Below are positions 36,020 through 55,484 of a stretch of DNA of 64,000 nucleotides, one piece after another. Each line of letters opens with the position of its first letter. Within the stretch, counting starts at the first letter, position 1. Made by a program: the position numbers and the translations under genes. The notes under the pieces are model-generated. The model worked only from the letters and a program-made list of their open reading frames with translations. It ran no database searches and was not told the DNA's origin. The stretch is from Flavobacteriales bacterium (GTDB lineage Bacteria; Bacteroidota; Bacteroidia; Flavobacteriales_F; PHOS-HE28): positions 44,519 through 108,518 of the forward strand of contig JAHDVX010000012.1 in NCBI GenBank assembly GCA_023382455.1, written 5' to 3'.

Positions 36020-36664
36020 TCACCGGGCATCAAAATTGGCCACGACGTAGTAGGGCCTGTAGGTGCGGCTCAGGGGGTCGAAAAGTTCTTGCACGGAGTA
36101 GGACCATCGGCCGGTTGCGCCGCGTCCCTGGTCCGGTTGGCGAAGCACATTGGCCACGTTTCCCGCTTGGCCGAGCAATAGGAAATCCAAGGTGCGTCCG
36201 TCCTCTGTAAGCACGACCAGCGTGAGGAACTGGCCCGAACGTACACTGGTCAGTTTACCCACGATGGATTGGGCCGGTGCCGTGTAGTTCCCGGCGCCTA
36301 CGCCAGGCGGTGGCGGGGGAGGAGGTTCAACGTCCATGGCATTCAGTCGCATGGACAAGGCACCAAAGGTCTTGGGGCATTTGGAGGCCATGCGGAATCC
36401 GACCATACGGCCGAATTCCTCCGCGTTCTTATCGGAACGCGCAAGATCCACCTTGTATTTCTTCTTCAATTGCTTCTGATAGGGTTCCGCGGCTTGCAAC
36501 ATGCACAAGCCCAAGGTCGTTTGCATTTCTTCCTTCGTCATGGTCGAATCCATGTCGCGGAGGCATTCACAGGCCTTTTCGGCGATGGGGTCCATCACGT
36601 CATCCTGCGCCGAGGAAATGGAGAATGTCAGTATGCTCAAGGTGATGGCAATACCAATACGCAT
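36020..36664 (-). CDS. Hypothetical secreted protein with a poly-proline tract
   Basis: True start is the internal ATG encoding MRIGIAITLSILTFSISSAQDD. The upstream 300 codons of the track ORF are Arg-rich antisense of the GT2 gene. Contains VEPPPPPPPGVG. Confidence 0.55.
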   Translation of the reverse strand: MRIGIAITLSILTFSISSAQDDVMDPIAEKACECLRDMDSTMTKEEMQTTLGLCMLQAAEPYQKQLKKKYKVDLARSDKNAEEFGRMVGFRMASKCPKTFGALSMRLNAMDVEPPPPPPPGVGAGNYTAPAQSIVGKLTSVRSGQFLTLVVLTEDGRTLDFLLLGQAGNVANVLRQPDQGRGATGRWSYSVQELFDPLSRTYRPYYVVANFDAR

Positions 36665-36717: not shown

Positions 36718-37716
36718 TCAGGCTGCCAAGAGAAAATCCACTCCCTCCACCAGCCCCCGCGAAGACAAGTACACCGCGATGCGGTCGCCGCTGCCGCGCT
36801 GGCTGATCATGGACACGATGAAGGCTTCCCCGGCGGACGGAAGCCGATCGTGCGGAATGAAGGCATAGCCGGGGACTTCCCGGGGCCGCACATCGGTGAA
36901 CGCATGGATGGCGATCCCTTTCGCCTCCAACAAATTGGCCCGGCTCCGGCAGATGCCGCTGGTGCCCGCGATGATGAGCAGCCTGCCGCCCAGCTCCCGC
37001 TTCAACCAGCGGGCCAACCAATGCACTTTGGTGCGGAAGAACGCCTCCGTGCTGTAATGGGGATGCGTGCGGCTGAGGCGTTGCGCATGGTCGTTCCACG
37101 TCAGGAGTTCCTCGGGCAGCTTCGCGAAGCGCACCCCGGCATCCATCCAGCGCAACCACAGCTCGTGGTCCTCGGGCATGGGTTCCGTGCTGTAGCCGCC
37201 ATACCGTTCTACCAGTTCGCGGCGGAACATCACGGTGGGATGGGCCAGGGGCGCATCCACGAAGCGTTTGATGCAGTGTTCGTGCGGCGTGACGATGGTG
37301 TTCTGCCATTGCACGAACCAGCGCATGCCGCTGCTTTGCGCCACGGTGCTGGCGAATCGTGTTTGGGTACCGAGCACACCGATGTCCGGACTTGCCTCCA
37401 TGAACGCGAACTGTTTGGACAATCGCTCCGGATGGCTGATATCGTCGGCATCCATGCGGGCGATGTAGCGGCCCTGCGCTTGGGCCAGCCCGGTGTTCAA
37501 GGCGTGCGCAATGCCGACCGTTGGCTCCTGCACCAGCCGGATGCGCGTATCGCGCCGCGCCCATCGCTCGGCGATCGACGGGCCTTCATCTGTGGAGGCA
37601 TTGTCGATCAGCAGCAGCTCCCAGTCCGCGAGGGTTTGCGCAGCCATGCTGGCAATAGCGGCCTGCAAGGTGGGCGCGGCGTTGCGGAAGGGGAGGAGGA
37701 TGAATACGACCGACAT
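36718..37716 (-). CDS. Glycosyltransferase family 2
   Basis: VVFILLPFRNAAPTL...LLLIDNASTDE...MDADD GT2 motifs. Confidence 0.85.
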   Translation of the reverse strand: MSVVFILLPFRNAAPTLQAAIASMAAQTLADWELLLIDNASTDEGPSIAERWARRDTRIRLVQEPTVGIAHALNTGLAQAQGRYIARMDADDISHPERLSKQFAFMEASPDIGVLGTQTRFASTVAQSSGMRWFVQWQNTIVTPHEHCIKRFVDAPLAHPTVMFRRELVERYGGYSTEPMPEDHELWLRWMDAGVRFAKLPEELLTWNDHAQRLSRTHPHYSTEAFFRTKVHWLARWLKRELGGRLLIIAGTSGICRSRANLLEAKGIAIHAFTDVRPREVPGYAFIPHDRLPSAGEAFIVSMISQRGSGDRIAVYLSSRGLVEGVDFLLAA

Positions 37717-37833
37717 AGGGCGAAGATGGACCTTTTGTGGCTGGGGAAAACTTCCTTGTGAATGGCGGTGTCCGACAGCTTCCTCGGCCTATCTTGCCAC
37801 CAAACCTTTGACGGCAAATCTGCCAAAGCACAA

Positions 37834-38787
37834 ATGACAAGTGTGGAGATCTGCGCCGGTGCAGGCGGGCAATCCTTGGGCTTGGAGCGGGCCGGTTTCG
37901 ACCATGAAGCCTTGGTGGAGATCGATGATGCCTGCTGTGCCACCTTGCGCCTGAACAGGCCGCAATGGAATGTGCTGCATGGCGACGTCAATGGATTCGA
38001 TGGGCGGCCATTCAAGGGTGTAGAACTGTTGGCAGGAGGAGTTCCATGTCCGCCATTCTCCGTGGCCGGAAAACAACTTGGCGCGAAGGATGAGCGGGAC
38101 CTTTTCCCGGAAGCGCTGAGGCTGACCGATGAGATCAGGCCGCGTGCCGTGATGCTGGAGAATGTGCGCGGATTTCTTGACCCGGCCTTCGAGGGTTATC
38201 GGAACCGCCTGTTCGGCCAATTCAGGAAGCTGGGCTACAAACCAGCGATACGCCTATTCCAAGCCTCGGATCACGGGGTGCCCCAGCTACGCCCACGGGT
38301 AGTGATCGTCGCCTTGCGCCCATCGGACGCCGATCATTTTACTTGGCCGGAGAAGAGCACCACACCAGCCCCCACTGTGGGCGAGACCTTGGAGGACCTG
38401 ATGGCAGCGAATGGATGGGCTGGTGCCCGGCAATGGGCAGCGGGCGCACGGGCAATCGCACCGACGATCGTTGGAGGTAGCAAGAAGCATGGTGGACCTG
38501 ATCTGGGACCCACTCGGGCCCGGAAGGCTTGGGCACAATTGGGCGTAGAGGGCGGCACCATTGCGGAAACCGCACCGGAACCAGGCTTCACGGGCATGCC
38601 TCGGCTGACTGTTCGCATGGTCGCGCGGATCCAAGGATTTCCTGACGATTGGCATTTCAGCGGTCGCAAGACCGCCGCCTACCGGCAAGTGGGCAATGCC
38701 TTCCCTCCGCCAGTGGCGGAGGCGGTGGGGCGGAGTATACAAGAGGTGTTCGAGCGTGCATCATTGCGCAGCGTAATGGTGGCATGA
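37834..38787 (+). CDS. DNA (cytosine-5)-methyltransferase (Dcm family); modification subunit of a Type II R-M pair
   Basis: Motif I EICAGAGG, IV GVPCPPFSVAG, VI ENV, VIII QLRPRVVIVA, X QVGNAFPPPVAEAVG. Lower GC than neighbours. Confidence 0.9.
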   Translation: MTSVEICAGAGGQSLGLERAGFDHEALVEIDDACCATLRLNRPQWNVLHGDVNGFDGRPFKGVELLAGGVPCPPFSVAGKQLGAKDERDLFPEALRLTDEIRPRAVMLENVRGFLDPAFEGYRNRLFGQFRKLGYKPAIRLFQASDHGVPQLRPRVVIVALRPSDADHFTWPEKSTTPAPTVGETLEDLMAANGWAGARQWAAGARAIAPTIVGGSKKHGGPDLGPTRARKAWAQLGVEGGTIAETAPEPGFTGMPRLTVRMVARIQGFPDDWHFSGRKTAAYRQVGNAFPPPVAEAVGRSIQEVFERASLRSVMVA

Positions 38788-39377
38788 TGGCAAAGAAGAG
38801 CCAAGGTGCACGGGCAAAACTCAGGAGCTTCCTCTTTGAGCATGTAGGCGAGGTCCTGGAAGCCGAAACGCTTCGCGAAGTTTCAGGAGGTATCAGTGAA
38901 TGGGCCCGGCGGATCAGGGAATTGCGCGACGAGGAAGGGATGGATATCCAAACAAACAACGATCGCAGTGACCTGAAGCCAGGTCAATACATTTTGGTAT
39001 CAGCCAAGCCAAAGCCGGCCTTTGAGCGGGGTATTTCCAAAGAGACGAGGGCTTTGGTGTTGGACCGCAACGGTTTCACCTGTCAAATGTGCGGAACTGC
39101 CGCCGGAGAGCCGCACCCATACGATCAAGGGCGAAAGACCAGGCTCCATATCGGTCACATAGTGGATAAGTCCATGGGTGGCGATGACAGCCCGGGCAAC
39201 CTTAGGGCCATCTGTTCCGTGTGCAACGAGGGGGCTTCAAACCTGACATTGAACCGCCCTGACGCCATCAAGCTCATTGCCCAGATCCGTCGTGCATCCG
39301 GGAAGGATCAGCTTGATGTGCTTTACTGGCTTATGCGGAAATTCCCGGAACAGGTACGGAAGAAACTGGGCAAGTAG
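38784..39377 (+). CDS. HNH-family endonuclease, putative restriction enzyme partner of the C5-MTase
   Basis: ATG overlaps the MTase TGA (ATGA). CQMCG ... HIGHIVDKSMGGDDSPGNLRAICSVCNEGASN is an HNH/beta-beta-alpha-Me motif. AT-richer codon usage. Confidence 0.75.
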   Translation: MMAKKSQGARAKLRSFLFEHVGEVLEAETLREVSGGISEWARRIRELRDEEGMDIQTNNDRSDLKPGQYILVSAKPKPAFERGISKETRALVLDRNGFTCQMCGTAAGEPHPYDQGRKTRLHIGHIVDKSMGGDDSPGNLRAICSVCNEGASNLTLNRPDAIKLIAQIRRASGKDQLDVLYWLMRKFPEQVRKKLGK

Positions 39378-39448
39378 AATTGTTCCAACCGATCCATGTC
39401 ACCTCGACTTACGACATGGATGCCGAATTCTGGAAATATCCTATTCCC

Positions 39449-39964
39449 TCAATACCGCCCCAACTCCCCCGGATCGAACCCCGCGCGGATCAGCGCGTTC
39501 TTCGCGGCCTTGAAGGCCTTGTCCGTTCCGTTGTGCGGATGCACGGGTACCTCGGTGGCCTGCCGTAGCTCCTCCAGCAGTGCCTCGGTCTCGCTGGTCG
39601 CGAGCTTCTCGCAGGCTTCGTACATGCCGCCGTGCTCCTCTTCCAGGCGGTCGTGCTGCTCCAGCAGCAGGCGCACCAGGCGGAGCACCTCGGGCGTGGG
39701 CGGCGTCACCATCAGGGCGGTGAGCGCGCCGTGGTCCAGGCGGAGCTTGGCGGCCAGCGGCAGGGGCATGCCGCCGTTGGCCCTTTGCGCGGCGGGGAAG
39801 AGGATCTTCTCCTCCATCTTGATGTGCTTCAGCAGGCCGGTGCGGAATTGGTGGTAGAGGTCCATGCGTACCTCGCCGGGCGTGGCGGTGGCCCGGTCCA
39901 GCAGGTCGTCCAGGCGGCGGTGGTCCTCGGTGAAGAAGCGGTGGAGGGGTTTGTCTTTGGGCAT
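39449..39964 (-). CDS. Hemerythrin HHE cation-binding domain protein
   Basis: HIKMEEKILFPAA and LLEQHDRLEEEHGGMYEA HHE-type motifs. Confidence 0.7.
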   Translation of the reverse strand: MPKDKPLHRFFTEDHRRLDDLLDRATATPGEVRMDLYHQFRTGLLKHIKMEEKILFPAAQRANGGMPLPLAAKLRLDHGALTALMVTPPTPEVLRLVRLLLEQHDRLEEEHGGMYEACEKLATSETEALLEELRQATEVPVHPHNGTDKAFKAAKNALIRAGFDPGELGRY

Positions 39965-40226
39965 AAGGATGAGCGTATGGCGATGGTGGCAAAGGTCGCC
40001 CAAGATGGATCCCATGCATGCCGCGAAGGATTGCAAGGCAGCGGATCATTCCTCACCTTGCACCGGTGGCAGGCGTACGGTCGCCGCGCCACGGAGCCGT
40101 GACCAGGGCACAACTGCGCAAGGCCGCACGGGAGAAGATCCGCTTCGGGGATTGATCGGCCTTGTTTCCGCAGGGACCGCCTTGTCGAAGACCGCGGTAG
40201 GCTTGACCCTGCGGAAACAGGGGCCA

Positions 40227-42059
40227 TCAGTTTTCCGTGTGCGCTGTGCCGCTGTGGTGATTACCTGAAATGCCCAGCCCGTTCCACAGCGCCTCCGCCT
40301 TCTTCGCGCCGATCTCCTGCGCCACTTCTTCCGGCTTGGCCTCGCGGATGCCCTGGATGGAGCCGAAGCGATGGAGCAGCTTTTGCGTGGTGGCAGGGCC
40401 GATGCCGGCGATGTCCTCCAGGCCGGTGCGCACGGTGCGCTTGCTGCGCTTGCCGCGGTGGTGCGTGATGCCGAAGCGGTGCGCCTCGTTGCGCATCTGC
40501 TGGATCAGCCGCAGGCTGGTGCTGCGCTTGTCGATGTGCAGCGGATAGGGATCGCCGGGGAAGAAGATCTCCTCTAAGTTCTTGGCGATGCCCACCAGGG
40601 CCACCTTGCCGCGCAGGCCTAAGCGGTCGAACACGTTGAGCGCGGAGTGCAGCTGGCCCTTGCCGCCGTCGATCACCACCAATTGCGGCAACGGATCGCC
40701 CTCGGTGAGCAGGCGGGAGTAGCGCCGCTCCACGGCCTCTTCCATGCTGGCGAAATCGTCCGGCCCCTGCACGGTGCGGATGTTGAAGTGGCGGTAATCC
40801 TTCTTGCTGGGCTTGGCGTCCTTGAACACCACGCAGGCGCTCACCGGGTCGGTGCCCTGGGTGTTGCTGTTGTCGAAGCACTCGATGTGGCGCGGCAATT
40901 CGGTGAGGCGCAGGTCCTGCTTCAGTTGTTCCAGCACGCGGTCCGTGGCGGCCTCCGGGTCCACCAAGGCTTCCTGCTTCTGCTTCTCCAGCATGAAGTA
41001 GTGGGCGTTACGCTCGCCCATCTCCAGCAGGTGCTTTTTGTCGCCGCGCTGCGGTAGTGTGAAGGCGATGCCGGGCATCTCGATGCCGGGATCCATGGGC
41101 ACCACCGCCTCCGGCGCGTTGCTGCGGAAGCGCTGGCGCAGATCGGCGATGGCATATTGCAGCACCTCGTCGTCGGGCTCGTCCAGCCGGCGCTTCAGTT
41201 CCACGGTCACGCCGTGCACCACCGCGCCGTCGATCACCCGCATGTAGTTCACGAAGCTGCTGTGGGTGTTGCGTGCCAGGGCGAACACGTCCACGTCGCC
41301 CACGGTGGGGCTCACCACGGTGCTGCGCGCCTGGTATTTTTCCAACTGCTCCGCCTGCGCGCGGGCTTCTTCGGCCTCCTCGAACTCCAGTTTTTCGGCG
41401 TGCTCCAGCATGCGCTGCCGGAGGATCTTCACCACGCTGCCGATGCGCCCCTTGAGGATCTGCCGGGCCTGCGCCACGTTGGCGTTGTAGTCCTCCTCGC
41501 GCTGCAGGCCCTCGCACGGCCCGCGGCAATTGCCCATGTGCCATTCCAGGCAGCGCTTGTACTTGCCCTTGGCCACGTTCCCCGGGCTGAGGTCGTAGTT
41601 GCAGGTGCGCAGCTTGTACAGCTGGTGCACCAGCTTCAAGGCGGTGCGCATGGCGCCGGCCGAGGCGAAGGGCCCGATGTACTCCGAGCCGTCGTCCACG
41701 GGGTTGCGCATGCCCTCGATGCGCGGGTAGTGCTCGTTGCGGATGCGGATCCACGGGTAGCTCTTGTCGTCCTTCAGCAGGATGTTGTACCGCGGCTGGC
41801 ATTCCTTGATCAGCGAATTCTCCAGCAGCAGCGCATCATAGGGCGTTTCGGTGACGATGGTGCGCAGGTCGGCGATCTTGGCCACCAGCAGGCGTGTCTT
41901 GCCGTCGGGATGCTGCTTGGCGAAGTAGCTGCCCACGCGGCTTCGCAGGCTGGTGGCCTTGCCCACGTAGAGGATCTTCCCCTCGCCGTCGAAGAACTGG
42001 TACACGCCGGGCTTGGCGGGCAACAGGCGCACCTTGTCGCGGACATCGAGGGCGTTCAT
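40227..42059 (-). CDS. uvrC: Excinuclease ABC subunit C
   Basis: GIY-YIG N-terminus (PGVYQFFDGEGKILYVGKA), UvrBC-interaction and C-terminal HhH regions. Confidence 0.95.
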   Translation of the reverse strand: MNALDVRDKVRLLPAKPGVYQFFDGEGKILYVGKATSLRSRVGSYFAKQHPDGKTRLLVAKIADLRTIVTETPYDALLLENSLIKECQPRYNILLKDDKSYPWIRIRNEHYPRIEGMRNPVDDGSEYIGPFASAGAMRTALKLVHQLYKLRTCNYDLSPGNVAKGKYKRCLEWHMGNCRGPCEGLQREEDYNANVAQARQILKGRIGSVVKILRQRMLEHAEKLEFEEAEEARAQAEQLEKYQARSTVVSPTVGDVDVFALARNTHSSFVNYMRVIDGAVVHGVTVELKRRLDEPDDEVLQYAIADLRQRFRSNAPEAVVPMDPGIEMPGIAFTLPQRGDKKHLLEMGERNAHYFMLEKQKQEALVDPEAATDRVLEQLKQDLRLTELPRHIECFDNSNTQGTDPVSACVVFKDAKPSKKDYRHFNIRTVQGPDDFASMEEAVERRYSRLLTEGDPLPQLVVIDGGKGQLHSALNVFDRLGLRGKVALVGIAKNLEEIFFPGDPYPLHIDKRSTSLRLIQQMRNEAHRFGITHHRGKRSKRTVRTGLEDIAGIGPATTQKLLHRFGSIQGIREAKPEEVAQEIGAKKAEALWNGLGISGNHHSGTAHTEN

Positions 42060-45348: not shown

Positions 45349-46077
45349 ATGCGTCCCGACCACCCCACCGACCCCTCCAAGATCCTTTTCCTGGACATTG
45401 AGACCGTGCCGGCCGTGTACCACTTCGGCGAGCTGGATGAACATGCGGCCAAGCTCTTCAGCGACAAGACCCGCTATGAGCAGGAGCGCAACGGCCGCTC
45501 CGCGGAGGAGATCTACGCCGAGCGTGGCGGCATCCTGGCGGAGTTCGGCAAGATCGTGTGCATCGGCGTGGGCGCGTTGAAGAAGGAGGCCAACGGCCAC
45601 GCGCTGCGTGTCACCTCGTTCCACGGCGATGATGAACGCGATGTGCTCCAGCGCTTCACGGACCTGCTGAACAAGAGCTACAACACCGACGACCACTGGC
45701 TTTGCGGCCACAACGGCAAGGAGTTTGACTTCCCATGGATCGCGCGGCGCTGCGTGGTGCACGGCATCAAGCTGCCGCGCCTCCTGGACGTGGGCGGCCT
45801 GAAGCCTTGGCAGGTGGGCTTCATCGACACCATGCAGCTCTGGAGCTTCGGCGATCGCAAGAACTTCACGTCGTTGGCATTGCTCACGCATATCCTCGGC
45901 ATCTCCACGCCCAAGGACGACATCAGCGGCGCCGACGTGGCGCGGGTGTACTATGAGGAGAAGGACGTGGAGCGCATCGCCACGTATTGCCGGAAGGACG
46001 TGGTGGCCACGGTGCAGCTGTACCTGCGGCTGCGTGGAATACCGGCCGTGGATGCCGGGAACATCACCGTGGTGTGA
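45349..46077 (+). CDS. Predicted 3'-5' exonuclease (DnaQ-like, PolB-exo-related family)
   Basis: ILFLDIETVP Exo I motif; HNGKEFDFPW Exo II; YCRKDVVAT Exo III. Confidence 0.8.
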   Translation: MRPDHPTDPSKILFLDIETVPAVYHFGELDEHAAKLFSDKTRYEQERNGRSAEEIYAERGGILAEFGKIVCIGVGALKKEANGHALRVTSFHGDDERDVLQRFTDLLNKSYNTDDHWLCGHNGKEFDFPWIARRCVVHGIKLPRLLDVGGLKPWQVGFIDTMQLWSFGDRKNFTSLALLTHILGISTPKDDISGADVARVYYEEKDVERIATYCRKDVVATVQLYLRLRGIPAVDAGNITVV

Positions 46078-46101: not shown

Positions 46102-47247
46102 GTGAAGTGGGCTCTGCGTATCCTGGTATTGCTCGCCGTGGTCGTGGGCGGGTCAGCGCTGGCATGGCACTGGGCCGGTCCTGGCCGCCAGCAATGGGTG
46201 AAGGACCAGGTGAAGATCCTGTTGAACCGTAAGCCGCAACGGGTGGGCGGGGCCGTGCCGGCGGCGGCCGTGCCGCTGGTGGAGGGCCTGGGCGTGAGCA
46301 CCGGCGATGAACCGCCGTTCTCCGTGGCATCGGGCCCTTGGTCCATGGTGCAGTACACGGAAGGTGACAAGGCCATCCGCCCTGATCTCCATTACACCTT
46401 CGAGCCCACGCCGGGTGCGGACAGCAGCCGGCTTTCCTCCGCTTGGGCGCATGGCGGCACCCATGCGTTCCGCATGGCCCCGGGGGATGAATATTCGCCG
46501 GCGATCCGGAGGCGGGCGGCGGATGTGGCCATCAAACTTTCCGCCGTGGACGTGGGCTTCTGGATGTGGACCCCGGCCCCGGCCACCCTGCTCACCGCCG
46601 TGGTGACCATTGACCGCAAGGGCAAGCAAATAGCTTGGTACGGCAAGGATCTGCCCGCGGACACGGCGGCAAGGACCGGTGTGCGGTTGAACGCCAGCTT
46701 CCTGATGGGCGACCTGGCCGTGGAGCCCGACGACATCCTTTCCGTCTACCTCTGGAAAAAAGGCGGCGGGGAAGCCTTCATCGACGATATGGACCTGTTC
46801 TTCCACAGCGCCGAGGTGCCCGGCCGGAAACTCGGGAAACCTCTGGCACTGGACAGCTTGGAAGCGGGCGGCCCCGTTCCCTTGACCTACGCCAAGCCCA
46901 CGGTCTCGGATATCCCGGTGGACACGGCGTGCTTCCGGGCCGGCCTGCCCGCATTGCCCACCACCCGCGAGGCCGTCCCCTTCGGCCGGTCCTCGCACGC
47001 GTGGCGCTTCGTTCCCGAGGAAGGCCTGGTCTGGTTGCAGGACACCGGGGGGAAGCCTTTGGGGTTGATTCGGCCCTGGTCGCCTGGCTCACGCAAGGAC
47101 ATCACCCACTTTGACCGCGTGGTGGCCAAAACAACCCCCGACGGGATCGTGGTGACCGGCTTCGACGTGGACCGCACCCACGGTGGTGAGCGTATCGCTG
47201 CTTCACCACGGCCTATCTCGCTCAGCATCACATGGCCCTCCGAATGA
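46102..47247 (+). CDS. Hypothetical membrane-anchored protein, first gene of a four-gene translationally coupled operon
   Basis: GTG start; N-terminal TM MKWALRILVLLAVVVGGSALA; overlaps the next gene by 16 nt. Confidence 0.55.
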   Translation: MKWALRILVLLAVVVGGSALAWHWAGPGRQQWVKDQVKILLNRKPQRVGGAVPAAAVPLVEGLGVSTGDEPPFSVASGPWSMVQYTEGDKAIRPDLHYTFEPTPGADSSRLSSAWAHGGTHAFRMAPGDEYSPAIRRRAADVAIKLSAVDVGFWMWTPAPATLLTAVVTIDRKGKQIAWYGKDLPADTAARTGVRLNASFLMGDLAVEPDDILSVYLWKKGGGEAFIDDMDLFFHSAEVPGRKLGKPLALDSLEAGGPVPLTYAKPTVSDIPVDTACFRAGLPALPTTREAVPFGRSSHAWRFVPEEGLVWLQDTGGKPLGLIRPWSPGSRKDITHFDRVVAKTTPDGIVVTGFDVDRTHGGERIAASPRPISLSITWPSE

Positions 47248-49118
47248 GAATGATCGCTTGGCTGCTGCCACTTCTGCTGGCCGCATGCGGCACCGGCACC
47301 GGCACCAACGCCATGGTGGAGGAATTCCATGTGCTGGACAATTGGGACGGCCGGAATGCGGAGGGCGTGAAATACATTGAACTCGACCACACGGAGGCCA
47401 TCGACAGCGGCTTCGTTGTTCCCTCCGTGCGCCAGGTGGATGGCGGGCGGTTCACGTTCACCTTCCGCGTGTCGGACCCCACGGGCAAGGGCCGGGCCTT
47501 CCGCTACAAGCTGTATTACCGCAACGAATCCTACAAGATGGAGGAAACGCGGCCGGACGGCAGCCAGCATCCCTTGGCGGAGGAGAACTTCTACGGCAGC
47601 TGGGAAAGCGCGGCCGAAGGCTTTCGCACCACACCGCGCACGGATGGCCTGGAGCCGTTGCGCGTCACCGATTCCTTCCGCATCCATGGGGACCCGCGCG
47701 ATGAGGACCGCTTCATGGTGGACGGTGTACGCAAGCGCTGGGCGCGGAACCCGCGTGTGGGCGAATACTCCTTCCTGCTGGTGGTGATGCCGGAGAATGC
47801 CTTCGAGGCGGCGCGGCTGCCGGAGAGCGTGGTGCGGATCGGTACCCGGGAGAACGGGCACTTCGTGGAGCCCTACTGGTATTTCCTCCACGGCCCGGGA
47901 TCGCGCCTGGGCGAGGTGTCCGTGCTCCTGGCCGCGGACTGTTTGAGGGTGGCCGCCATTCCGCCGCTGGGCGCGGGCATCTGGGTGGACGGATCCGATG
48001 CTCTCTCCACCGCGGCATACAGCGGTTCCTGCGGCAACAGTGAGGAGCTTCGCAAGGGTGCGGCCTTCTCCCAGTTCATCCACTACGTGGACGCCTCCAC
48101 GCGCTTCTCCAACATCCCCTTGATCGCCGATGTGCTCGGCAACGAGTACACGCCTGAGGACCATGATTACAACCGCGCCTTCTTCCCCGAGGGCCACATG
48201 GTCTCGCTTACGCCCATGACCACCAAGGCACCTTGCGAAACCGTCAGGTCCAACCCCGACAACAACACTATCGAGATCCACAACCCGGCCTCGCGGCCCG
48301 GTGACCTGCGCAAGGAGAACGTGGGCGTGCGGTCACGGCACGGCCTGATGTACGGCAAGTACTCCGTGAAGTGCAAGCTCACGCCCTTGCTGAACGATTC
48401 GGACATGTGGAACGGGCTCACCAACGCCATCTGGCTGATCTACCAAGGGGCGCCGGGGAACTATCGCCGCATCTGCGAAAAGGACGGCTACATGTCTGAC
48501 TACTACGGCGGTGACGCCGTGGAGCGCGTACCGCAAGTGGCCTATGCGGAGATCGACTTCGAGATCCTGAAGACCCCGCTCTACTGCCCTGACGCCACTT
48601 TCCCGCCGTTGCGGCCCCAACAGGTGGCGGTACCGGGGCAGCGAGCCAACTGGCAGCGCCCTTCGGATGGTGGCATCCCCAAGGGCATGATCACCGTGGC
48701 TTGCACCAACTGGGACATGGCCTGCCATTCACCGGTGGATTTCGCGGCGGGATGCAGGCCCATCGAACATGAGGGGCACACTTACCTGAGCCACCGCTGG
48801 GACGACAACTACCGCGCCATCACCCAGAAGAAGTACGAACCGGATGCCGAGCTGTTCCGTGGCGATCACTATTGGTTCCAGATCGACTGGCGGCCGGACC
48901 AGGTGATCTGGCGCATCGGGCCCGAGCTGGACCAACTGCGCGAGGTGGGCTACATGGACAGCACGGTCACCTCCATCAGCGATGTGCAGATGGAGCTGAT
49001 CGTCACCCAGGAGTTCCATAACACCAAGTGGTGGCCGGGCTCGCCATACGACCAAGGGTGCATTCCCTTTGCGGCAAAGGATTACACCGGCGTGATCCAG
49101 GACGTAGTGATCGAATGA
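47232..49118 (+). CDS. Lipoprotein with a C-terminal GH16-like (concanavalin-type glucanase) region
   Basis: Lipobox LLLAAC; EIDFE motif (GH16 ExDxE catalytic pattern) within YAEIDFEILK. Confidence 0.5.
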   Translation: MALRMRMIAWLLPLLLAACGTGTGTNAMVEEFHVLDNWDGRNAEGVKYIELDHTEAIDSGFVVPSVRQVDGGRFTFTFRVSDPTGKGRAFRYKLYYRNESYKMEETRPDGSQHPLAEENFYGSWESAAEGFRTTPRTDGLEPLRVTDSFRIHGDPRDEDRFMVDGVRKRWARNPRVGEYSFLLVVMPENAFEAARLPESVVRIGTRENGHFVEPYWYFLHGPGSRLGEVSVLLAADCLRVAAIPPLGAGIWVDGSDALSTAAYSGSCGNSEELRKGAAFSQFIHYVDASTRFSNIPLIADVLGNEYTPEDHDYNRAFFPEGHMVSLTPMTTKAPCETVRSNPDNNTIEIHNPASRPGDLRKENVGVRSRHGLMYGKYSVKCKLTPLLNDSDMWNGLTNAIWLIYQGAPGNYRRICEKDGYMSDYYGGDAVERVPQVAYAEIDFEILKTPLYCPDATFPPLRPQQVAVPGQRANWQRPSDGGIPKGMITVACTNWDMACHSPVDFAAGCRPIEHEGHTYLSHRWDDNYRAITQKKYEPDAELFRGDHYWFQIDWRPDQVIWRIGPELDQLREVGYMDSTVTSISDVQMELIVTQEFHNTKWWPGSPYDQGCIPFAAKDYTGVIQDVVIE

Positions 49119-51424
49119 TGATGAAGCACCGAGGTCTTTGGCTCACCCTTTTCCTGTCCGTGGGCCTTCTCGCCTTTTATTTCGGGGCCGTCCTACGATC
49201 GCCCGGCCGGTACATGTTCAATGCCGAAGGCGATGGCCTGAAGAACTATTTCTCCTTTGCTTGGCATGCGGAGCACGATACCTCCCTTACTACGTTCTCG
49301 GGGATGAACTATCCCTTCGGGGAGCACATCGACTATCCGGATGCGCAACCCTTGCAGAGCAACCTGTGGCGCGCAGTGGCCAAGGTGTGGCCAGGGGCCC
49401 TGCAACACACCGTTGCGGTGGTGAACCTGATGATGCTGTTCAGCATCGTGCTCTGCGCGGTATTCCTGTACCTGATCATGCGGGAGCTGGCCATGCCGGA
49501 CCTGGTGGCGGCCTTGTTCGCGGTCTTGATCTCCTTCCTGGCCCCGCAGGTGCTGCGTGGCACGCAGGCGCACTATGCACTGGCCTACGGATGTGCCATC
49601 CCGAGTGCCATGTGGGTGCTGCTGCGGCAATGGCGGAGCAGCCGCCCGTGGCGCTGGGCGGCCGGCATGGTCCTGTTGATCCTGTTCTGGCTGTTCACCC
49701 ACGTCTATCTGGGCTTCATATCGGCGGTATTGGTGCTGGCCACGGGCGCACTTGTCCTGGTATTCCGGGCCGGCGAGCGCCGCGCCGCGTGGGGCATGGT
49801 GGCCGCACCGCTGGCCGCATTCCTCTTGTTCTTCCTTTGGCAGCAGCTCACGGACACCCATACGGGCCGCACGCAGCATCCCACCGGGTTCTTCACGTAC
49901 CAGATGACCTGGTCCACGCTCTTGGCCCCCGATCCCCTCTTCGCCTCCTCCATTTGGACCAGGTTCATCGGGCTGCCCGTGTTCCGGTTGGCGGAAGGAT
50001 GGAACTTCATCGGCCTGGGAACGGAGCTGGTCGTGGTCGTCGTGCTGATCTTGTTGATGCGCGGCCTCGCGAAGGGCACCGCAGGCGAACTGTTCAATCG
50101 TGTGTTCCCCGCGAAACTGTTGTTGTTGCTGGGCGGCTCCCTGCTGCTCCTGGCCTTTGCATTCGGCCTTCCGTTCGATCCCTGGTGCAAGAAGTGCCTT
50201 TGGTATATCCCGACGCTGGGGCAGTTCCGTGCACCGGCTCGTTTCGGGTGGGCCTTCTATTTCGTCATCACTGTGTGGGCGGCACGCACGGCGTGGGTCC
50301 TGTATGACGGTGCCGCGCAAGGCCGGGCGCGCAAGGCCGCAGCGGTGCTGGTGGCCGTGGTGGCGGCCTTCTTTGTCACGGACATGCATGCCTTGGACAG
50401 CTACGTGGCCCGGCGGATCGTGGAGCAGCCCAACTACTTCGATCCGGAGCAGTTGCCGGCGGACATGCAGCCCATCTACCAGGCCGCCAAGCGGGTGGAT
50501 GCCCGGGCCATGGTCACCTTGCCATACTACCACAATGGCGGCGAGGAATACATGGTGCCTGCGGACGAGGCCGGCCTATTGATCGGCCAGGCCATGGCCC
50601 AGCTGACCGGCATACCCCTGATGAATTCGAGCTTCACGCGCACCGGCGTCGAGGAGGTGCGTGAGCTGATCCAGGCATTCGGACCGGATTGGTATCCCAA
50701 GGCGATGGCCGCCAGGTTCCAAGCCTCCGATACGATCCTGCTCATACTTTCCGGCAGCCTCTTGGGACCATACGACCAGGTCTTGGCCTCCCATGGCAGG
50801 GAGCTTGCCAAGGGCGGGCCGTACACCTTGCTGGCCACCACCGCGGGCGAGCTTTTTGCCGATAGGGCGGGCAGGTATGTGGCGCGCTTTGAAGCAAGCC
50901 GGGATACTCTTCATCAAAGTGGCGAATGGCTGTTCAGCAGGCCGGACACGTTCCTGTTCCGCAAGGATTACGATGATAGGCCCGCGACCCATGTGCGTTC
51001 GGGCTCCGGCGCATTCTCGGGCCTGAAGCATGATTTCAACCTGCTGGCGGAATTGCCGGTGGAGGCCATGGATACCGGGGTGACCTACTTGGCCTCATTC
51101 TGGTACTACAACCGCGGGCCCATGCGCAACCATGCTCTTGCGGGGATCGATGACCACGACCCGGTCCAGGGCACAGGTGCTTGGGACTACTATACCGATC
51201 CGCGTTTCGCGCGCACCATCGTGGGCGATTGGAGCTTGGTGGAATTGCCCTTCCGGAAAGGCGGCCCGGGCCACGAGCTGAAATTGTTCGTCCAAGGCGC
51301 GGATTTCTATCCGGACAGCATTTGGGTGGACGACCTCACCGTGCGGGTGGCCGATGTCGATGTGTACAAGGTGGATACGGTCGGGAACAGGCTCTGGTAT
51401 AACAACCACTGGATTGCTCCATGA
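49115..51424 (+). CDS. Large polytopic membrane protein (770 aa), putative GT-C-like glycosyltransferase/flippase-type component
   Basis: ATG overlaps the upstream stop (ATGA); >10 hydrophobic helices followed by a ~350-aa soluble C-terminal domain. Confidence 0.55.
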   Translation: MMMKHRGLWLTLFLSVGLLAFYFGAVLRSPGRYMFNAEGDGLKNYFSFAWHAEHDTSLTTFSGMNYPFGEHIDYPDAQPLQSNLWRAVAKVWPGALQHTVAVVNLMMLFSIVLCAVFLYLIMRELAMPDLVAALFAVLISFLAPQVLRGTQAHYALAYGCAIPSAMWVLLRQWRSSRPWRWAAGMVLLILFWLFTHVYLGFISAVLVLATGALVLVFRAGERRAAWGMVAAPLAAFLLFFLWQQLTDTHTGRTQHPTGFFTYQMTWSTLLAPDPLFASSIWTRFIGLPVFRLAEGWNFIGLGTELVVVVVLILLMRGLAKGTAGELFNRVFPAKLLLLLGGSLLLLAFAFGLPFDPWCKKCLWYIPTLGQFRAPARFGWAFYFVITVWAARTAWVLYDGAAQGRARKAAAVLVAVVAAFFVTDMHALDSYVARRIVEQPNYFDPEQLPADMQPIYQAAKRVDARAMVTLPYYHNGGEEYMVPADEAGLLIGQAMAQLTGIPLMNSSFTRTGVEEVRELIQAFGPDWYPKAMAARFQASDTILLILSGSLLGPYDQVLASHGRELAKGGPYTLLATTAGELFADRAGRYVARFEASRDTLHQSGEWLFSRPDTFLFRKDYDDRPATHVRSGSGAFSGLKHDFNLLAELPVEAMDTGVTYLASFWYYNRGPMRNHALAGIDDHDPVQGTGAWDYYTDPRFARTIVGDWSLVELPFRKGGPGHELKLFVQGADFYPDSIWVDDLTVRVADVDVYKVDTVGNRLWYNNHWIAP

Positions 51425-52692
51425 ACCTTGGTCGCGATTGGTCGCCTTGGCTGGCGCTTGTGGTTTTCCTCGCGGGCTTTCTTTCTTTTCTGGGGCACAA
51501 CGGCCACATCTTGGATGTCATGCTGGCGCACAACAGTGACCCCCGGGGTTATTACCAGTATCTCCCGGCAATCTTCTTGGACCACGACCTGCGCGGCATG
51601 CCCTACGTGCATGTACTCCCCAACGGGAACCACCTCAGTATGTTCAACATTGGCTTGGCCTACCTGTTGGCCCCGTTCTTTTTGGCGGCGCACGGGCTTT
51701 GCTTGGCCGGGTTGGCACCGGCGGACGGTTACTCGTGGCCCTACGCCGTGGCCGTAGGCTTGGCAGCATCCACCTATGCGGCCTGGGGATGCACGCTGGT
51801 GGCGAGGCCCTTGGGTAAGCGCTTCGGGACGCTGAACGCCTCCTTGGCGGTGCTGTTGCTCTTCGCCTGCACCAACCTGTACTTCTACACGGCCATGGAG
51901 CCCGGCATGAGCCATGTGTACTCCTTCTTCCTGTTCACCGTGCTACAGTGGGCCACCCTGCGCATGCGGGAGGCGCCGAAAGGGAGAACGTTGGTGCTGT
52001 TGGCGGTCACGTGGTCGGTGATCGTGCTGGTGCGGCCCTCGAACGGCATCGCAGGGCTGTTCCCGCTGCTCTATGGCACCACGGGGCCGCGTGGGGTGCG
52101 CGAGCGGCTGGCTTCGTGGGTTGCTGACTGGCGGGCGTTGGCTCTTGCCGTGTTTCTCGGGTTGCTGCCATGGATCCCCCAGCTTCTTTATTGGCGGTCG
52201 ATCACCGGCAGCCCCATCGTCTTTACCTACGGCACCATGGGCCAAGGCTTCCATTGGCTGTACCCGCGCCTGTGGGAAGTGCTGGCGCACCCTTGGAACG
52301 GCTGGTTCCTCTACTCGCCAATTATGCTGCCGGTGATGGCGGCCTTGTTGTGGATGGCCTTCAGGCGGACCGAAGGCGCACGTACCGTGCTGCTCCTCTG
52401 GCTGCTTGCCTGGTACATCATCGCCTCTTGGTGGTGCTGGTGGCTGGGCGGCGCGTTCGGGCACCGCGGCTTTGTGGAATACATGGCCTTCCTGGCCCTG
52501 CCTACCGCGTGGCTGGTCCAGCGTATCGCTTGGCGGAAACAGGCAGCCCGGGCGGCCGCTTGGGTGCTGGCGCTGCTCTTTGCCTGGGCCAACATCGGCC
52601 TCAGTTGGAACTACCTGTCCCCTTGGGACGGGCCGGAGTGGACGATGCAGAGCGTGCAACGGGAATACCTGCGCCTGCTCCCGCACAGGTGA
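51421..52692 (+). CDS. Polytopic membrane protein, GT-C-fold glycosyltransferase-like (ArnT/PMT type)
   Basis: ATGA overlap with the upstream gene; first loop HNSDPRGYYQYLPAIF resembles the ArnT D-E-x-R-Y loop-1 motif; ~11 TM helices. Confidence 0.55.
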   Translation: MNLGRDWSPWLALVVFLAGFLSFLGHNGHILDVMLAHNSDPRGYYQYLPAIFLDHDLRGMPYVHVLPNGNHLSMFNIGLAYLLAPFFLAAHGLCLAGLAPADGYSWPYAVAVGLAASTYAAWGCTLVARPLGKRFGTLNASLAVLLLFACTNLYFYTAMEPGMSHVYSFFLFTVLQWATLRMREAPKGRTLVLLAVTWSVIVLVRPSNGIAGLFPLLYGTTGPRGVRERLASWVADWRALALAVFLGLLPWIPQLLYWRSITGSPIVFTYGTMGQGFHWLYPRLWEVLAHPWNGWFLYSPIMLPVMAALLWMAFRRTEGARTVLLLWLLAWYIIASWWCWWLGGAFGHRGFVEYMAFLALPTAWLVQRIAWRKQAARAAAWVLALLFAWANIGLSWNYLSPWDGPEWTMQSVQREYLRLLPHR

Positions 52693-52754: not shown

Positions 52755-55385
52755 TCATCTCTTGAACATGGCCAGATCTGCGGAGGGCACTTGATGGACT
52801 TTGCGCAACAAGACCGCCATATCCGACACGCCCTCCAAGACCCCCGCAGCATATTCCGGGCGTAGATCAAGTGCCATTTGCCCGAATTCATGCGGAAGGG
52901 TATAGGTGAGATCGAACGGACCCTGCCCCATGATCAGGCGCTGACGGTACATCTCGGTTCCTTGGTCCATCACGCGTAGGACCAAGTGCCACGTGCCACC
53001 TTCCTGCAGCAACCGGGCGTCCCCTGTCACACTGACCTCAAATAGCGGGACATCGTTACCTACATCAAACGGTATTGGCCCATCTTGGGCGTAGACTGCC
53101 GGATCCCAGCCACTTAGGGTCATGGTCCGGTTTTGCTGGCCATGGCCCGGTTCAACAGCTTGATCGGATGGGGTCAAGAGATCGGCAGCAAACACGGTAT
53201 CCGTGGTCCATTGCCTGGTCGCATCCTTCCTTTCAAACACCCAGACCGAGAACGGGGATGTATCATTCCAGCCGTCCATCCCTAAAAACATGCGTTGGAG
53301 GGTGAACGCGCCATCATCCAGGATCCTTTGTATCGGAATCGCCGATTCGTTCGGGCCGAAATGGGAATCCCAGACCAGTATGTCATGTTCGGCCAAACCG
53401 GCCCCCGGCCTGGACCAAGGCAATACGGACAGGTTCACGGCGCCGGTGCTATCCCAAGGGTCCTTGCCGGTAACGATCCCGAAGTATGGATATAGGTAGG
53501 CCACCCGTCCTCCGGGCCGCTCCAACCCCCGGACGTACGAGGCCGCGCGGTCCGTTTGCAACTGTTCCGCCACCATGACCGGCGGAAGAGGAACCCGGCC
53601 AAATACATCCTTGATGCCAAGTGGTAGCAACAGAAGCCAACAGCCTGCCGCAAATGCCAAGCGCACGGCTTTGCCAGGTGACTTTTTCAGGCCACTGATG
53701 GACGTGGATGCCACGCCAAGAATGAACAACACGCTAAGCGGTACCGTGGTTGCAAACACACGCAGATATCCGGCCGACCCCGAATGGCCGTTCCACCAGG
53801 CATAGCTGTGCAGGAACCAAATGGCAACCACCGGCAAACCGGTCAACACCAAGGTGTCCAACAGTGCCTTACGTTGCTCCTTGCGATGATGCCAAACGAA
53901 AGGCCATGCGAGGAAGGATGCCGTCAGTAGCATGAGAAGGGGCAGGCCGAGGATGTCGGGTGCCTGTTGCAGGAAATGGGACCAGTCACCATGGCCATAT
54001 TGGGTGTTCCCCAGATAGGGGTCTTCATGCAGGATCCATAGGAAGTCGCCATAGGCCAACCACGTGAAGACGGCATAGATGAAGGGTCCGCAGGCCAATA
54101 ATGGCAACTTTCGCCAATGCCCGTTCCAAGCGGCCCAAAGCGCCACAAACGGGAGAAGCCCGGCCGCCTCCGGCCTGGAGAATGGAAGAAGCGAGGCCAG
54201 AAGCATGCCCGCCGTGACCCTCCCCGATCGGAGAAGGCCGACCACGAGAACCGCCAAGAGCCCGAAAAGGGGCTCGGTCATGCCTGAATAGACCATAAAG
54301 AGGTACTGCGGCGAGATCAGCAGCAATACGGGAACCGCCCAACGTAGTACGGTCGCACTATCCGTGATATGGCGCATGATCACTACCATCGTGAACAAGG
54401 CAACCACGGCATTGAACAGGGCGAGCCCCCAAAAACCAAGTTGTGCGAAAGGCGAGGCCAGCAGCACGAACAAAGGCTTGGCCCAATTGTCCAGGAACAA
54501 GGAAGGGTGCTTCCAAGCGTGCAATGCCTGCAAGTAGTGCAATGCCCCATCGCCGATCTCAGGCTGGGCCGCGGTTGAAGCGCGTATGGCCACAAGTGCG
54601 GCCAAGGAGATCACGGCCGGGACCAAGGCGCCCCACGTTCCCCATCCGGATCGTAATGAACCTTGGCCCATTGCCTGCAATCCGTACTTGAGGATGCACC
54701 AAATGGCCCGGAAACCGTCCTTCCAGCCTATCTTTTTCCCTTCGGCGTATGTGCGGCCGTAGTAACTGATGCCGACCTCATAGATGCGGATGCCCTTGAC
54801 CCGCGCAAGCTTCGCGGTCACCTCGGGCTCAAAGCCGAACCGCTTTTCCTTCAGGTCCAAGCCTTGGGCAATGTCGGTGCGGATCAGCTTGTAGCAGGTC
54901 TCCATGTCGGTCAGGTTCAAGTTGTTGAACGTGTTGGAGAGCTGGGTGAGGAACTTGTTGCCGATGCTGTGCCAGAAGAAGAGGATGCGGTGCGGATGGT
55001 GGCCCATGAAGCGCGAGCCGTAGACCACGTCGGCGAAGCCTTCCACCACGGGGCGCAACAGGTCGTTGTATTCGCGGGGATCGTATTCCAGGTCGGCATC
55101 CTGCACGATCAGGTATTCGCCGGTGGCTTCCTTGATGCCGCGGTGGATGGCCGCGCCCTTGCCCATGTTGTGCGGCTGCTGGATGAAGCGGATGTCCAGG
55201 CCGGGATTGGCGGCCATGTAGCGCTCCACTGCGGCCACGGTCCCGTCCGTACTCCCGTCGTTCACGATGATCACCTCCTTCTGGATGCCATCGCGCAATT
55301 GCACGTCCCGCACCTTGTCCAGGATCAGGTGGATGGTGCGCTCCTCATTGAAGGCGGGGATGATGATGGACAGCTTGGTAAGCAT
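52755..55385 (-). CDS. Fusion protein: N-terminal GT2 polyprenol-phosphate sugar synthase (Dpm1/ArnC-like), then a ~12-TM GT-C-like membrane domain and a C-terminal soluble domain
   Basis: MLTKLSIIIPAFNEE..VNDGSTDGT..VQDADLEYDP GT2 motifs, then >10 hydrophobic helices and a ~300-aa C-terminal domain. Confidence 0.7.
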   Translation of the reverse strand: MLTKLSIIIPAFNEERTIHLILDKVRDVQLRDGIQKEVIIVNDGSTDGTVAAVERYMAANPGLDIRFIQQPHNMGKGAAIHRGIKEATGEYLIVQDADLEYDPREYNDLLRPVVEGFADVVYGSRFMGHHPHRILFFWHSIGNKFLTQLSNTFNNLNLTDMETCYKLIRTDIAQGLDLKEKRFGFEPEVTAKLARVKGIRIYEVGISYYGRTYAEGKKIGWKDGFRAIWCILKYGLQAMGQGSLRSGWGTWGALVPAVISLAALVAIRASTAAQPEIGDGALHYLQALHAWKHPSLFLDNWAKPLFVLLASPFAQLGFWGLALFNAVVALFTMVVIMRHITDSATVLRWAVPVLLLISPQYLFMVYSGMTEPLFGLLAVLVVGLLRSGRVTAGMLLASLLPFSRPEAAGLLPFVALWAAWNGHWRKLPLLACGPFIYAVFTWLAYGDFLWILHEDPYLGNTQYGHGDWSHFLQQAPDILGLPLLMLLTASFLAWPFVWHHRKEQRKALLDTLVLTGLPVVAIWFLHSYAWWNGHSGSAGYLRVFATTVPLSVLFILGVASTSISGLKKSPGKAVRLAFAAGCWLLLLPLGIKDVFGRVPLPPVMVAEQLQTDRAASYVRGLERPGGRVAYLYPYFGIVTGKDPWDSTGAVNLSVLPWSRPGAGLAEHDILVWDSHFGPNESAIPIQRILDDGAFTLQRMFLGMDGWNDTSPFSVWVFERKDATRQWTTDTVFAADLLTPSDQAVEPGHGQQNRTMTLSGWDPAVYAQDGPIPFDVGNDVPLFEVSVTGDARLLQEGGTWHLVLRVMDQGTEMYRQRLIMGQGPFDLTYTLPHEFGQMALDLRPEYAAGVLEGVSDMAVLLRKVHQVPSADLAMFKR

Positions 55386-55484
55386 GCAATTGCGTTGTTT
55401 CCATCGCTGTACGCACGGCCCGCGATCAACCACGGCAAACGTAAAGCGCCGATCTCATAATAATGGATGGAAGATGATGCCTCT

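Follow-up and report, generated by a model that had tools for sequence, protein, structure and literature searches.

Restriction endonucleases built around an HNH (beta-beta-alpha-Me) core occur in several orthodox Type IIP systems. KpnI, Hpy99I, PacI, SphI and NlaIII are small single-chain nucleases of about 200 aa, their core is stabilised by zinc through a CxxC...CxxC arrangement, and the gene of each adjoins that of its own methylase (PMC4081073, PMC2441816). A classification of 2008 divided such proteins into 14 HNH subfamilies, uncharacterised cyanobacterial open reading frames (ORFs) among them (PMC2441816). Here we analysed a 64,000-nucleotide stretch of the genome of a Flavobacteriales bacterium (the whole stretch is called the window below), in which a gene for a C5 DNA methyltransferase (37834-38787, + strand) overlaps a gene for a putative HNH restriction endonuclease (38784-39377, + strand). 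Our results suggested that the two genes very probably form a two-gene Type II restriction-modification (R-M) module. The pair was acquired horizontally, and the acquisition was not recent.

Other described systems resemble this pair in part. The N6-methyladenine (6mA)-dependent enzymes SruGXI and HhiV4I have a winged helix followed by an HNH domain (PMC11037411). Modification-dependent enzymes of this architecture need N6-methyladenine, and 87% of them have no methylase nearby (PMC11037411). In the three-gene 5-methylcytosine (m5C)-Vsr systems and in Dcm-Vsr of E. coli, an m5C methylase gene is followed by an overlapping nuclease gene. R-M units have also been described as insertions with long target duplication. 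According to Furuta, Abe and Kobayashi (2010), these have the restriction (R) and modification (M) genes inside an insert of <20 kb, direct repeats of >30 bp, a single copy of the repeated sequence in an insert-free genome and no mobility gene, and no Bacteroidota example is reported in the parts consulted (PMC2853133).

The HNH protein of the window shares with the orthodox Type IIP enzymes its small single-chain form, its CxxC...CxxC core and the position of its gene beside a methylase gene. It differs from them in its recognition module, a winged helix with the motif EWARRxRELR, and in its last metal ligand, which is Asn and not His. Hpy99I pairs with an m5C methylase, as does the protein studied here. 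No sequence similarity was detectable between the HNH protein and the PDB chains of Hpy99I or PacI. The order of winged helix and HNH domain is that of SruGXI and HhiV4I, but the family of the window is coupled to a C5 methylase in 80/80 loci and in none of these was it found in the stand-alone state of the Type IV winged helix-HNH enzymes. Since the methylase is always present, the nuclease is expected to be blocked, not activated, by methylation. The overlap of the two genes recalls the Dcm-Vsr arrangement, whereas the downstream partner is an HNH protein without the Vsr fold and the methylase is no Dcm orthologue. As for the units of Furuta et al., a related locus (L001, a contig of a Flavobacteriales metagenome-assembled genome, MAG) is alike in having 78-nt target repeats around an insert of about 1.7 kb and neither integrase nor transposase; in the window, by contrast, the second repeat copy is no longer detectable.

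Some further systems were compared and set aside. Druantia type II was matched through DruM2 only, and DruF, DruG and the DruE helicase were not among the neighbours (GT2, hemerythrin, uvrC). Because these other Druantia genes are missing at the locus, the DruM2 match was taken to reflect a shared methylase subfamily only. The Paracoccus 'HNH R-M system' consists of a 16-kDa non-specific nuclease with a GANTC methylase (PMC11473606), and PcaRCII is a stand-alone methylation-dependent HNH enzyme (PMC8989522).

Results

The methylase and the overlapping HNH protein

The methylase gene encodes 317 aa plus the stop codon, and the HNH gene encodes 197 aa. The same 317-aa and 197-aa products were found, in the same context, in independent gene calls on six public contigs with an identical HNH protein. 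This identical 197-aa protein is on record for 50 contigs, and the six retrieved places represent six different samples. The ATG of the nuclease gene (38784-38786) overlaps the TGA of the methylase gene (38785-38787), giving ATGA at 38784-38787 (+ strand, read from the sequence), and a second ATG follows at 38787. The overlap is consistent with translational coupling of the two genes. An earlier note on this DNA had proposed the two ORFs at 37834-39377, the overlap of TGA and ATG and a complete set of C5 methylase motifs; all of these were borne out, the ORF positions by the six public contigs as well.

The methylase matched the Pfam family DNA_methylase (PF00145) at 2e-67, with profile positions 1-323 of 324 covered, and TIGR00675 with 162 bits. 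Its motifs follow the canonical order: I (CAGAGG, aa 7), IV (PCPPFS, aa 71), VI (ENV, aa 109), VIII (QLRPR, aa 151), IX (RIQGFP, aa 265) and X (GNAFP, aa 287). The catalytic Cys lies within PCPPFS (aa 71-76), and target recognition is assigned to a variable region at about aa 165-255. Among the PADLOC profiles, MTase_II was matched with 403 bits, and the best match was the DruM2 model (490 bits, full length). The description 'Dcm-family' in the earlier note holds at the level of the superfamily, as the TIGR00675 match indicates, but not for Dcm proper: the model NF007772 gave 19.4 bits against a cutoff of 710.

The HNH protein matched Pfam HNH (PF01844) with 31.3 bits (cutoff 21.4; E 2e-7). 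Its motif residues are C100-x2-C103, H122-x2-H125, N139 and C144-x2-C147-N148. The C-x2-C, N and C-x2-C-N parts had been read correctly before, whereas the histidine part, given as H-x3-H, is really H-x2-H, and only H125 of the two is invariant. In an alignment of 40 sequences with a mean column identity of 79%, seven homologous positions (H125, N139, N148, C100, C103, C144 and C147) do not vary. All 80 nuclease copies of the linkage survey described below keep H125 and both CxxC pairs. A strict motif expression, which needs H122 too, failed in 3/80 (H122Q in L008 and L051, N139M in L034). From these motifs we predict that C100, C103, C144 and C147 are zinc ligands, H125 the general base, N139 a structural residue and N148 a metal ligand, which would make the core an HNN variant.

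An AlphaFold model built on 40 homologs was used to delimit the domains. The N-terminal part, for which about 120 aa of unknown specificity had been supposed, is instead a winged helix of about 70 residues (aa 9-78; 38808-39017, + strand) with the signature SEWARR(V/I)RELR-EEG, a pLDDT of 89-97 and the topology helix-strand-helix-helix-strand. It is followed by the HNH (beta-beta-alpha-Me) core, assigned from sequence motifs (aa 98-152; 39075-39239, + strand), and by a C-terminal helical hairpin taken from the AlphaFold model (aa 154-195; 39243-39368, + strand). The helices of the hairpin are predicted at 159-170, 173-186 and 188-195, with a pLDDT of about 92 for aa 171-197 and 68 for aa 161-170. 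The winged helix is presumed to be the DNA-recognition module, and the hairpin is possibly a dimerisation element.

A Foldseek search of the model against the PDB gave no match with E <= 0.001. The best-ranked alignments, which were not significant, put the N-terminal domain on the winged-helix DNA-binding domains of Rok, OmpR/PhoB and MarR. When aa 1-85 alone were used in a HMMER search, about 500 clusters at 50% identity were obtained. An HNH domain was present in 47 of 72 longer representatives and Pfam HTH_39 in 19. Many of the relatives are proteins of about 310 aa with two winged helices and an HNH domain, and single relatives are fused to Vsr, NaeI-like, Mrr_N or C5-methylase domains. 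From these fusions, we take the N-terminal domain to be a DNA-binding module dedicated to HNH nucleases that occur in contexts of the restriction type.

The HNH protein as a whole matched the PADLOC REase_II models PDLC03478 and PDLC03503, which are of similar length, at about 1e-7, a weak but specific match. A faint match to mREase_IV (E = 0.004) was also observed, and the HNH region aligned to the McrA HNH cores 5zmm and 6ghc with E > 0.05. Database homologs of the protein form 7518 clusters, whose automatic labels include 'HNH endonuclease' and 'McrA'. Plasmid and phage homologs are annotated just as 'HNH endonuclease', with no named enzyme among them, and no named characterised relative was found in the literature searched, which included two reviews of HNH Type II subfamilies.

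Linkage of the HNH gene to a C5 methylase

The linkage of the two genes was surveyed at the best 80 loci (68-87% HNH identity) in contigs taken from one genome per species. These loci are spread over Bacteroidota, Cyanobacteria, Acidobacteria, Nitrospirae, Clostridia, Actinobacteria, Spirochaetes, Chloroflexi and several classes of Proteobacteria. In every one of the 80, tblastn found a homologous methylase immediately upstream of the HNH gene on the same strand. The methylase is full length in 78/80, variable region included, with 55-86% identity; in the two others it is cut by the contig end (L006) or interrupted (L015). In most loci the start of the nuclease gene falls within a narrow range, from about 60 nt inside the methylase gene to 15 nt past the methylase stop. 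Two outcomes had been named in the earlier note as speaking against an R-M pair, namely that homologs of the HNH protein are never linked to methylases, or that the methylase has a Vsr-type partner. Neither occurred.

Clustering of the flanking ORFs for a conserved third gene returned only Vsr (9 loci) and serine recombinases (3 loci). The Vsr gene is a genuine one (PF03852) and is an additional gene in each of these 9/80 loci. In the window, the HNH partner had no Vsr match in Pfam, and a tblastn search for Vsr across all 64 kb found none, so the pair is not a Dcm-Vsr pair of the E. coli type. An extra Vsr would be expected beside a true m5C methylase whose HNH partner is no mismatch-repair nuclease. 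In one locus (L007) an XRE-type HTH gene, found in no other of the loci, lies directly upstream of the methylase. It may resemble the controller (C) proteins of Type II systems, which is a reading of its sequence and not a family match.

Proteins of related architecture were also seen outside the survey. On the Pandoraea oxalativorans plasmid pPO70-1 (NZ_CP011518.2; L157:3101-4459), a 452-aa ORF annotated 'Vsr' comprises a Vsr domain, two EWARRVRELR winged helices and an HNH domain, and it lies directly after a C5 cytosine methylase. The Blautia phage NatCom_27009 (L158:1162-3605) encodes a 221-aa protein in which the HNH domain stands between two winged helices and which is 37% identical over the shared part. 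Its gene adjoins a second HNH gene and a DNA methyltransferase gene.

Insertion site and horizontal acquisition

The pair lies between host genes. On its left is a GT2 glycosyltransferase gene (36718-37716, - strand; PF00535 at 5e-30), on its right a gene with a hemerythrin domain (39449-40036, - strand; PF01814 at 4e-8), and beyond the latter uvrC (40227-42059, - strand; UvrC domains). The HNH stop and the hemerythrin stop are separated by a spacer of 71 bp (39378-39448), which is the right edge of the variable segment. The mean GC of the window is 0.64, that of the methylase gene 0.61 and that of the HNH gene 0.55. GC at third codon positions (GC3) is 0.64 in the methylase gene and 0.63 in the HNH gene, and genuine host genes of the window reach about 0.82-0.92. 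The flanks and the lower GC of the pair both agreed with what the earlier note had stated.

HNH-protein identity of 68-75% holds across Bacteroidota, Cyanobacteria, Acidobacteria, Clostridia, Proteobacteria and other phyla, and the 14-kb Acidithiobacillus plasmid pGT2 carries a 67%-identical copy adjoining a tyrosine recombinase. The GT2/hemerythrin junction itself was compared in two relatives. L087 is a closely related metagenomic contig, whose hemerythrin and GT2 proteins are 80% and 78% identical to those of the window. Its junction contains no methylase or HNH gene and instead a 95-aa ORF and a 105-aa ParE-toxin ORF (6610-7199). L001 has the same gene order as the window (Aldh-GT2-M-R-hemerythrin-uvrC), and its proteins share 86-87% identity with their counterparts there in the case of R and M and 75-89% in the case of the flanking genes. 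On the right, homology among the window, L087 and L001 ends precisely with the hemerythrin stop codon; on the left, homology between the window and L087 ends at the GT2 start. The presence of the pair at the same site in L001, with similar divergence, indicates that it was already there in the common ancestor and that the acquisition was not recent.

The unit of L001 lies between two copies of a 78-nt direct repeat, which corresponds to the GT2 5' end. These copies are 96% identical (71 nt exact), they are spaced 1759 nt from start to start, and the repeat covers the GT2 start. A PIN-domain toxin gene with an overlapping small ORF (6720-7434) lies between the second copy and the hemerythrin gene; no integrase or transposase is nearby, and the insert measures about 1.7 kb. 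In L087 the target at the GT2 start is present as a single copy. L001 thus shows the features that Furuta et al. list for long target duplications, and the window does not. Flanking direct repeats surround the pair at other loci as well (51 nt in L007, 29 nt in L019 and 163 nt at 82% in L056). Around the pair in the window, only short matches at chance level were found, and alignment of the 71-bp spacer to the repeat and the PIN region of L001 revealed no remnant. From this comparison, the window appears to have lost a second repeat copy that it once had.

The GT2/hemerythrin junction looks like a hot spot for addiction modules, because a ParE toxin-antitoxin pair occupies it in L087 and a PIN toxin gene accompanies the R-M unit in L001. 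In L045, L068 and L070 (MAG contigs of Clostridia and Nitrospirae), the methylase-HNH pair is closely preceded by large serine recombinase genes, which suggests carriage on integrative elements in these lineages. Taken together, the anomalous GC3, the identity across phyla, the plasmid copy, the alternative cargo at the junction and the target duplication in L001 support horizontal acquisition of the R-M pair. With the linkage described above, they are also in favour of the interpretation in the earlier note, a horizontally acquired Type II R-M pair.

The upstream leader

The unit is preceded by a non-coding leader (37717-37833, + strand), which is common with the promoter region of the divergent GT2 gene. 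It contains the elements GAAAACTT (37746-37753), TATCTTGCC (37790-37798), which resembles the Bacteroidota -7 box TAnnTTTG, and TTGAC (37808-37812). All of these elements are kept upstream of the methylase in L001-L004, and the genomic contexts of L002-L004 are unrelated. Judged by this conservation, about 100 nt upstream of the methylase move together with the unit. A search of the leader for a sigma-70 consensus promoter found none. The conserved elements may have a promoter role.

Other genes of the window

Pfam gave no match for a 191-aa ORF (36020-36595, - strand) that separates the aldehyde dehydrogenase gene from the GT2 gene. A tblastn search found no counterpart in the syntenic L001, which makes this ORF a further small presence/absence difference close to the cassette. 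Farther to the right, four consecutive overlapping ORFs of 381, 628, 769 and 423 aa (46102-52692, + strand) have host-like GC3. The 381-, 628- and 769-aa ORFs matched nothing in Pfam, NCBIfam or PADLOC, and the sole match of the 423-aa ORF was a faint one to the LA_3751/3752 putative glycosyltransferase. The run follows an RNase_H_2/DNA_pol_B_exo2-like gene (45349-46077) and precedes GT2 and PMT_2 genes; because these genes adjoin it, the run is probably related to the cell envelope. In the adjacent region (52755-57098, - strand), GC3 is lower than in the neighbours (0.73-0.76) in two genes, one of 876 aa with a GT2 domain and a PMT_2 gene of 537 aa, and this may be a second compositionally atypical segment.

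Discussion

We propose that the pair works as a self-contained R-M module, in the manner of the KpnI and Hpy99I class of HNH Type IIP enzymes. The methylase would methylate C5 of cytosine in a short target and thereby protect the host chromosome, and the downstream HNH protein would be the cognate restriction endonuclease. Its N-terminal winged helix would read the same target when this is unmethylated, and the zinc-stabilised single-metal HNH site would cut the DNA, H125 serving as the general base and N148 binding the metal. The nuclease probably acts as a homodimer. The ATGA overlap would make translation of the nuclease depend on prior translation of the methylase, and the whole module of about 1.65 kb would behave as a mobile, addiction-type cassette. 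Our data show directly the gene anatomy, the motifs, the strict linkage, the wide horizontal distribution, the alternative cargo at the junction and the target duplication in L001. Restriction by the HNH protein is inferred, as are cleavage at specific sites and its sensitivity to methylation, the dimeric state, what the winged helix does and the promoter function of the leader.

Several of our results weigh against an R-M module. The nuclease is more conserved than the methylase in 78/80 loci (mean identity 73.6% versus 61.8%), which is the reverse of what is expected for R-M pairs. In L015 (Ferruginibacter sp. MAG, JBDUEK010000108.1; region 4233-6594), the methylase breaks off after about 120 aa, a 268-aa Mrr-like gene in the opposite orientation (4902-5708) takes the place of its middle part, only a C-terminal remnant is left at 5826-5987, and the HNH gene (5989-6594) is intact. 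It appears that a methyl-dependent nuclease displaced the methylase there and left its presumed restriction partner. This locus is hard to reconcile with a lethal restriction endonuclease; a second methylase, silence of the HNH copy or a chimeric contig would account for it. When palindrome avoidance in the window and the 80 carrier loci was compared with control loci, only a generic CTAG depletion and no recognition-site signal was found. The AlphaFold confidence of the HNH core is low (pLDDT 43-65 over aa 83-157), so the fold assigned to this core rests on its sequence motifs. Sequence and profile searches of all PDB chains with the HNH protein gave only generic HNH cores (McrA, IscB) with E > 0.05.

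The first two of these results, together with the Pandoraea polypeptide, leave a small probability to a modification-dependent role or to roles in which the HNH protein is not a restriction enzyme at all. It could be a repair or nicking enzyme associated with the methylase, for example an analogue of Vsr acting at the T:G mismatches that arise from m5C deamination, and the methylase would then be an orphan. Its unusual conservation, above that of the methylase, and its integrity in L015 despite the broken methylase would fit such a role, and the Pandoraea polypeptide that joins Vsr, two winged helices and HNH behind a C5 methylase provides a physical link to mismatch repair. A true Vsr is nevertheless present as an extra gene in 9/80 loci and is fused to these domains in Pandoraea, which would be redundant if the HNH protein did the job of Vsr. 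The cassette also behaves as a selfish mobile module, as judged from the site it shares with toxin-antitoxin genes, the long target duplications and the plasmid copy, and its PADLOC matches are to REase_II models and to no repair families. We therefore regard a Vsr analogue as quite improbable. A broader possibility is that the winged helix/HNH partner is not an orthodox restriction enzyme and has a second role, such as making a break that drives cassette insertion in a homing-like manner or acting together with Vsr on m5C-derived lesions. The higher conservation of the nuclease, its survival in L015 and the long target duplications that lack a recombinase gene are all compatible with this idea, which we consider unlikely.

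A Type IV-like, modification-dependent nuclease that senses N6-methyladenine, with the C5 methylase as an independent or anti-restriction partner, is suggested by the winged helix and HNH architecture of SruGXI and HhiV4I (PMC11037411), by the automatic annotation of homologs as 'McrA', by the faint mREase_IV match and by the fact that the best matches of the HNH core to solved structures are McrA enzymes. The McrA similarity is limited to the generic HNH core, however, and, whereas 87% of the modification-dependent winged-helix fusions stand alone (PMC11037411), one methylase family is linked, co-oriented and overlapping in 80/80 of our loci. Translational coupling to this methylase fits a protective partnership, and a 6mA sensor thus seems very unlikely to us. 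The pair could finally be a decayed remnant with a perhaps orphan epigenetic methylase, an inactive HNH gene and no restriction today. The cassette was already in place before this lineage and that of L001 separated, and the loss here of the right-hand repeat and of the PIN gene of L001 speaks for local erosion. Neither ORF is truncated, however, no catalytic residue is lost, and the identical 197-aa protein recurs on 50 contigs, with the six retrieved copies stemming from different samples. The 86-87% identity to L001 is as high as that of the housekeeping neighbours, which indicates purifying selection. Decay is accordingly very unlikely in our estimation, and a two-gene Type II R-M module remains by far the preferred reading.

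As such a module, the locus is an ordinary defence/addiction module and leaves current understanding unchallenged. It is a clean Bacteroidota example of an insertion with target duplication at a hot spot that is common to toxin-antitoxin pairs. The nuclease is without a matched characterised enzyme and is therefore a reasonable candidate for enzyme discovery. For the family as a whole, our evidence says that the HNH homologs now labelled 'HNH endonuclease' or 'McrA' are very probably the restriction half of a widespread m5C R-M family, whose 7518 protein clusters reach from Bacteroidota to Cyanobacteria and Proteobacteria.

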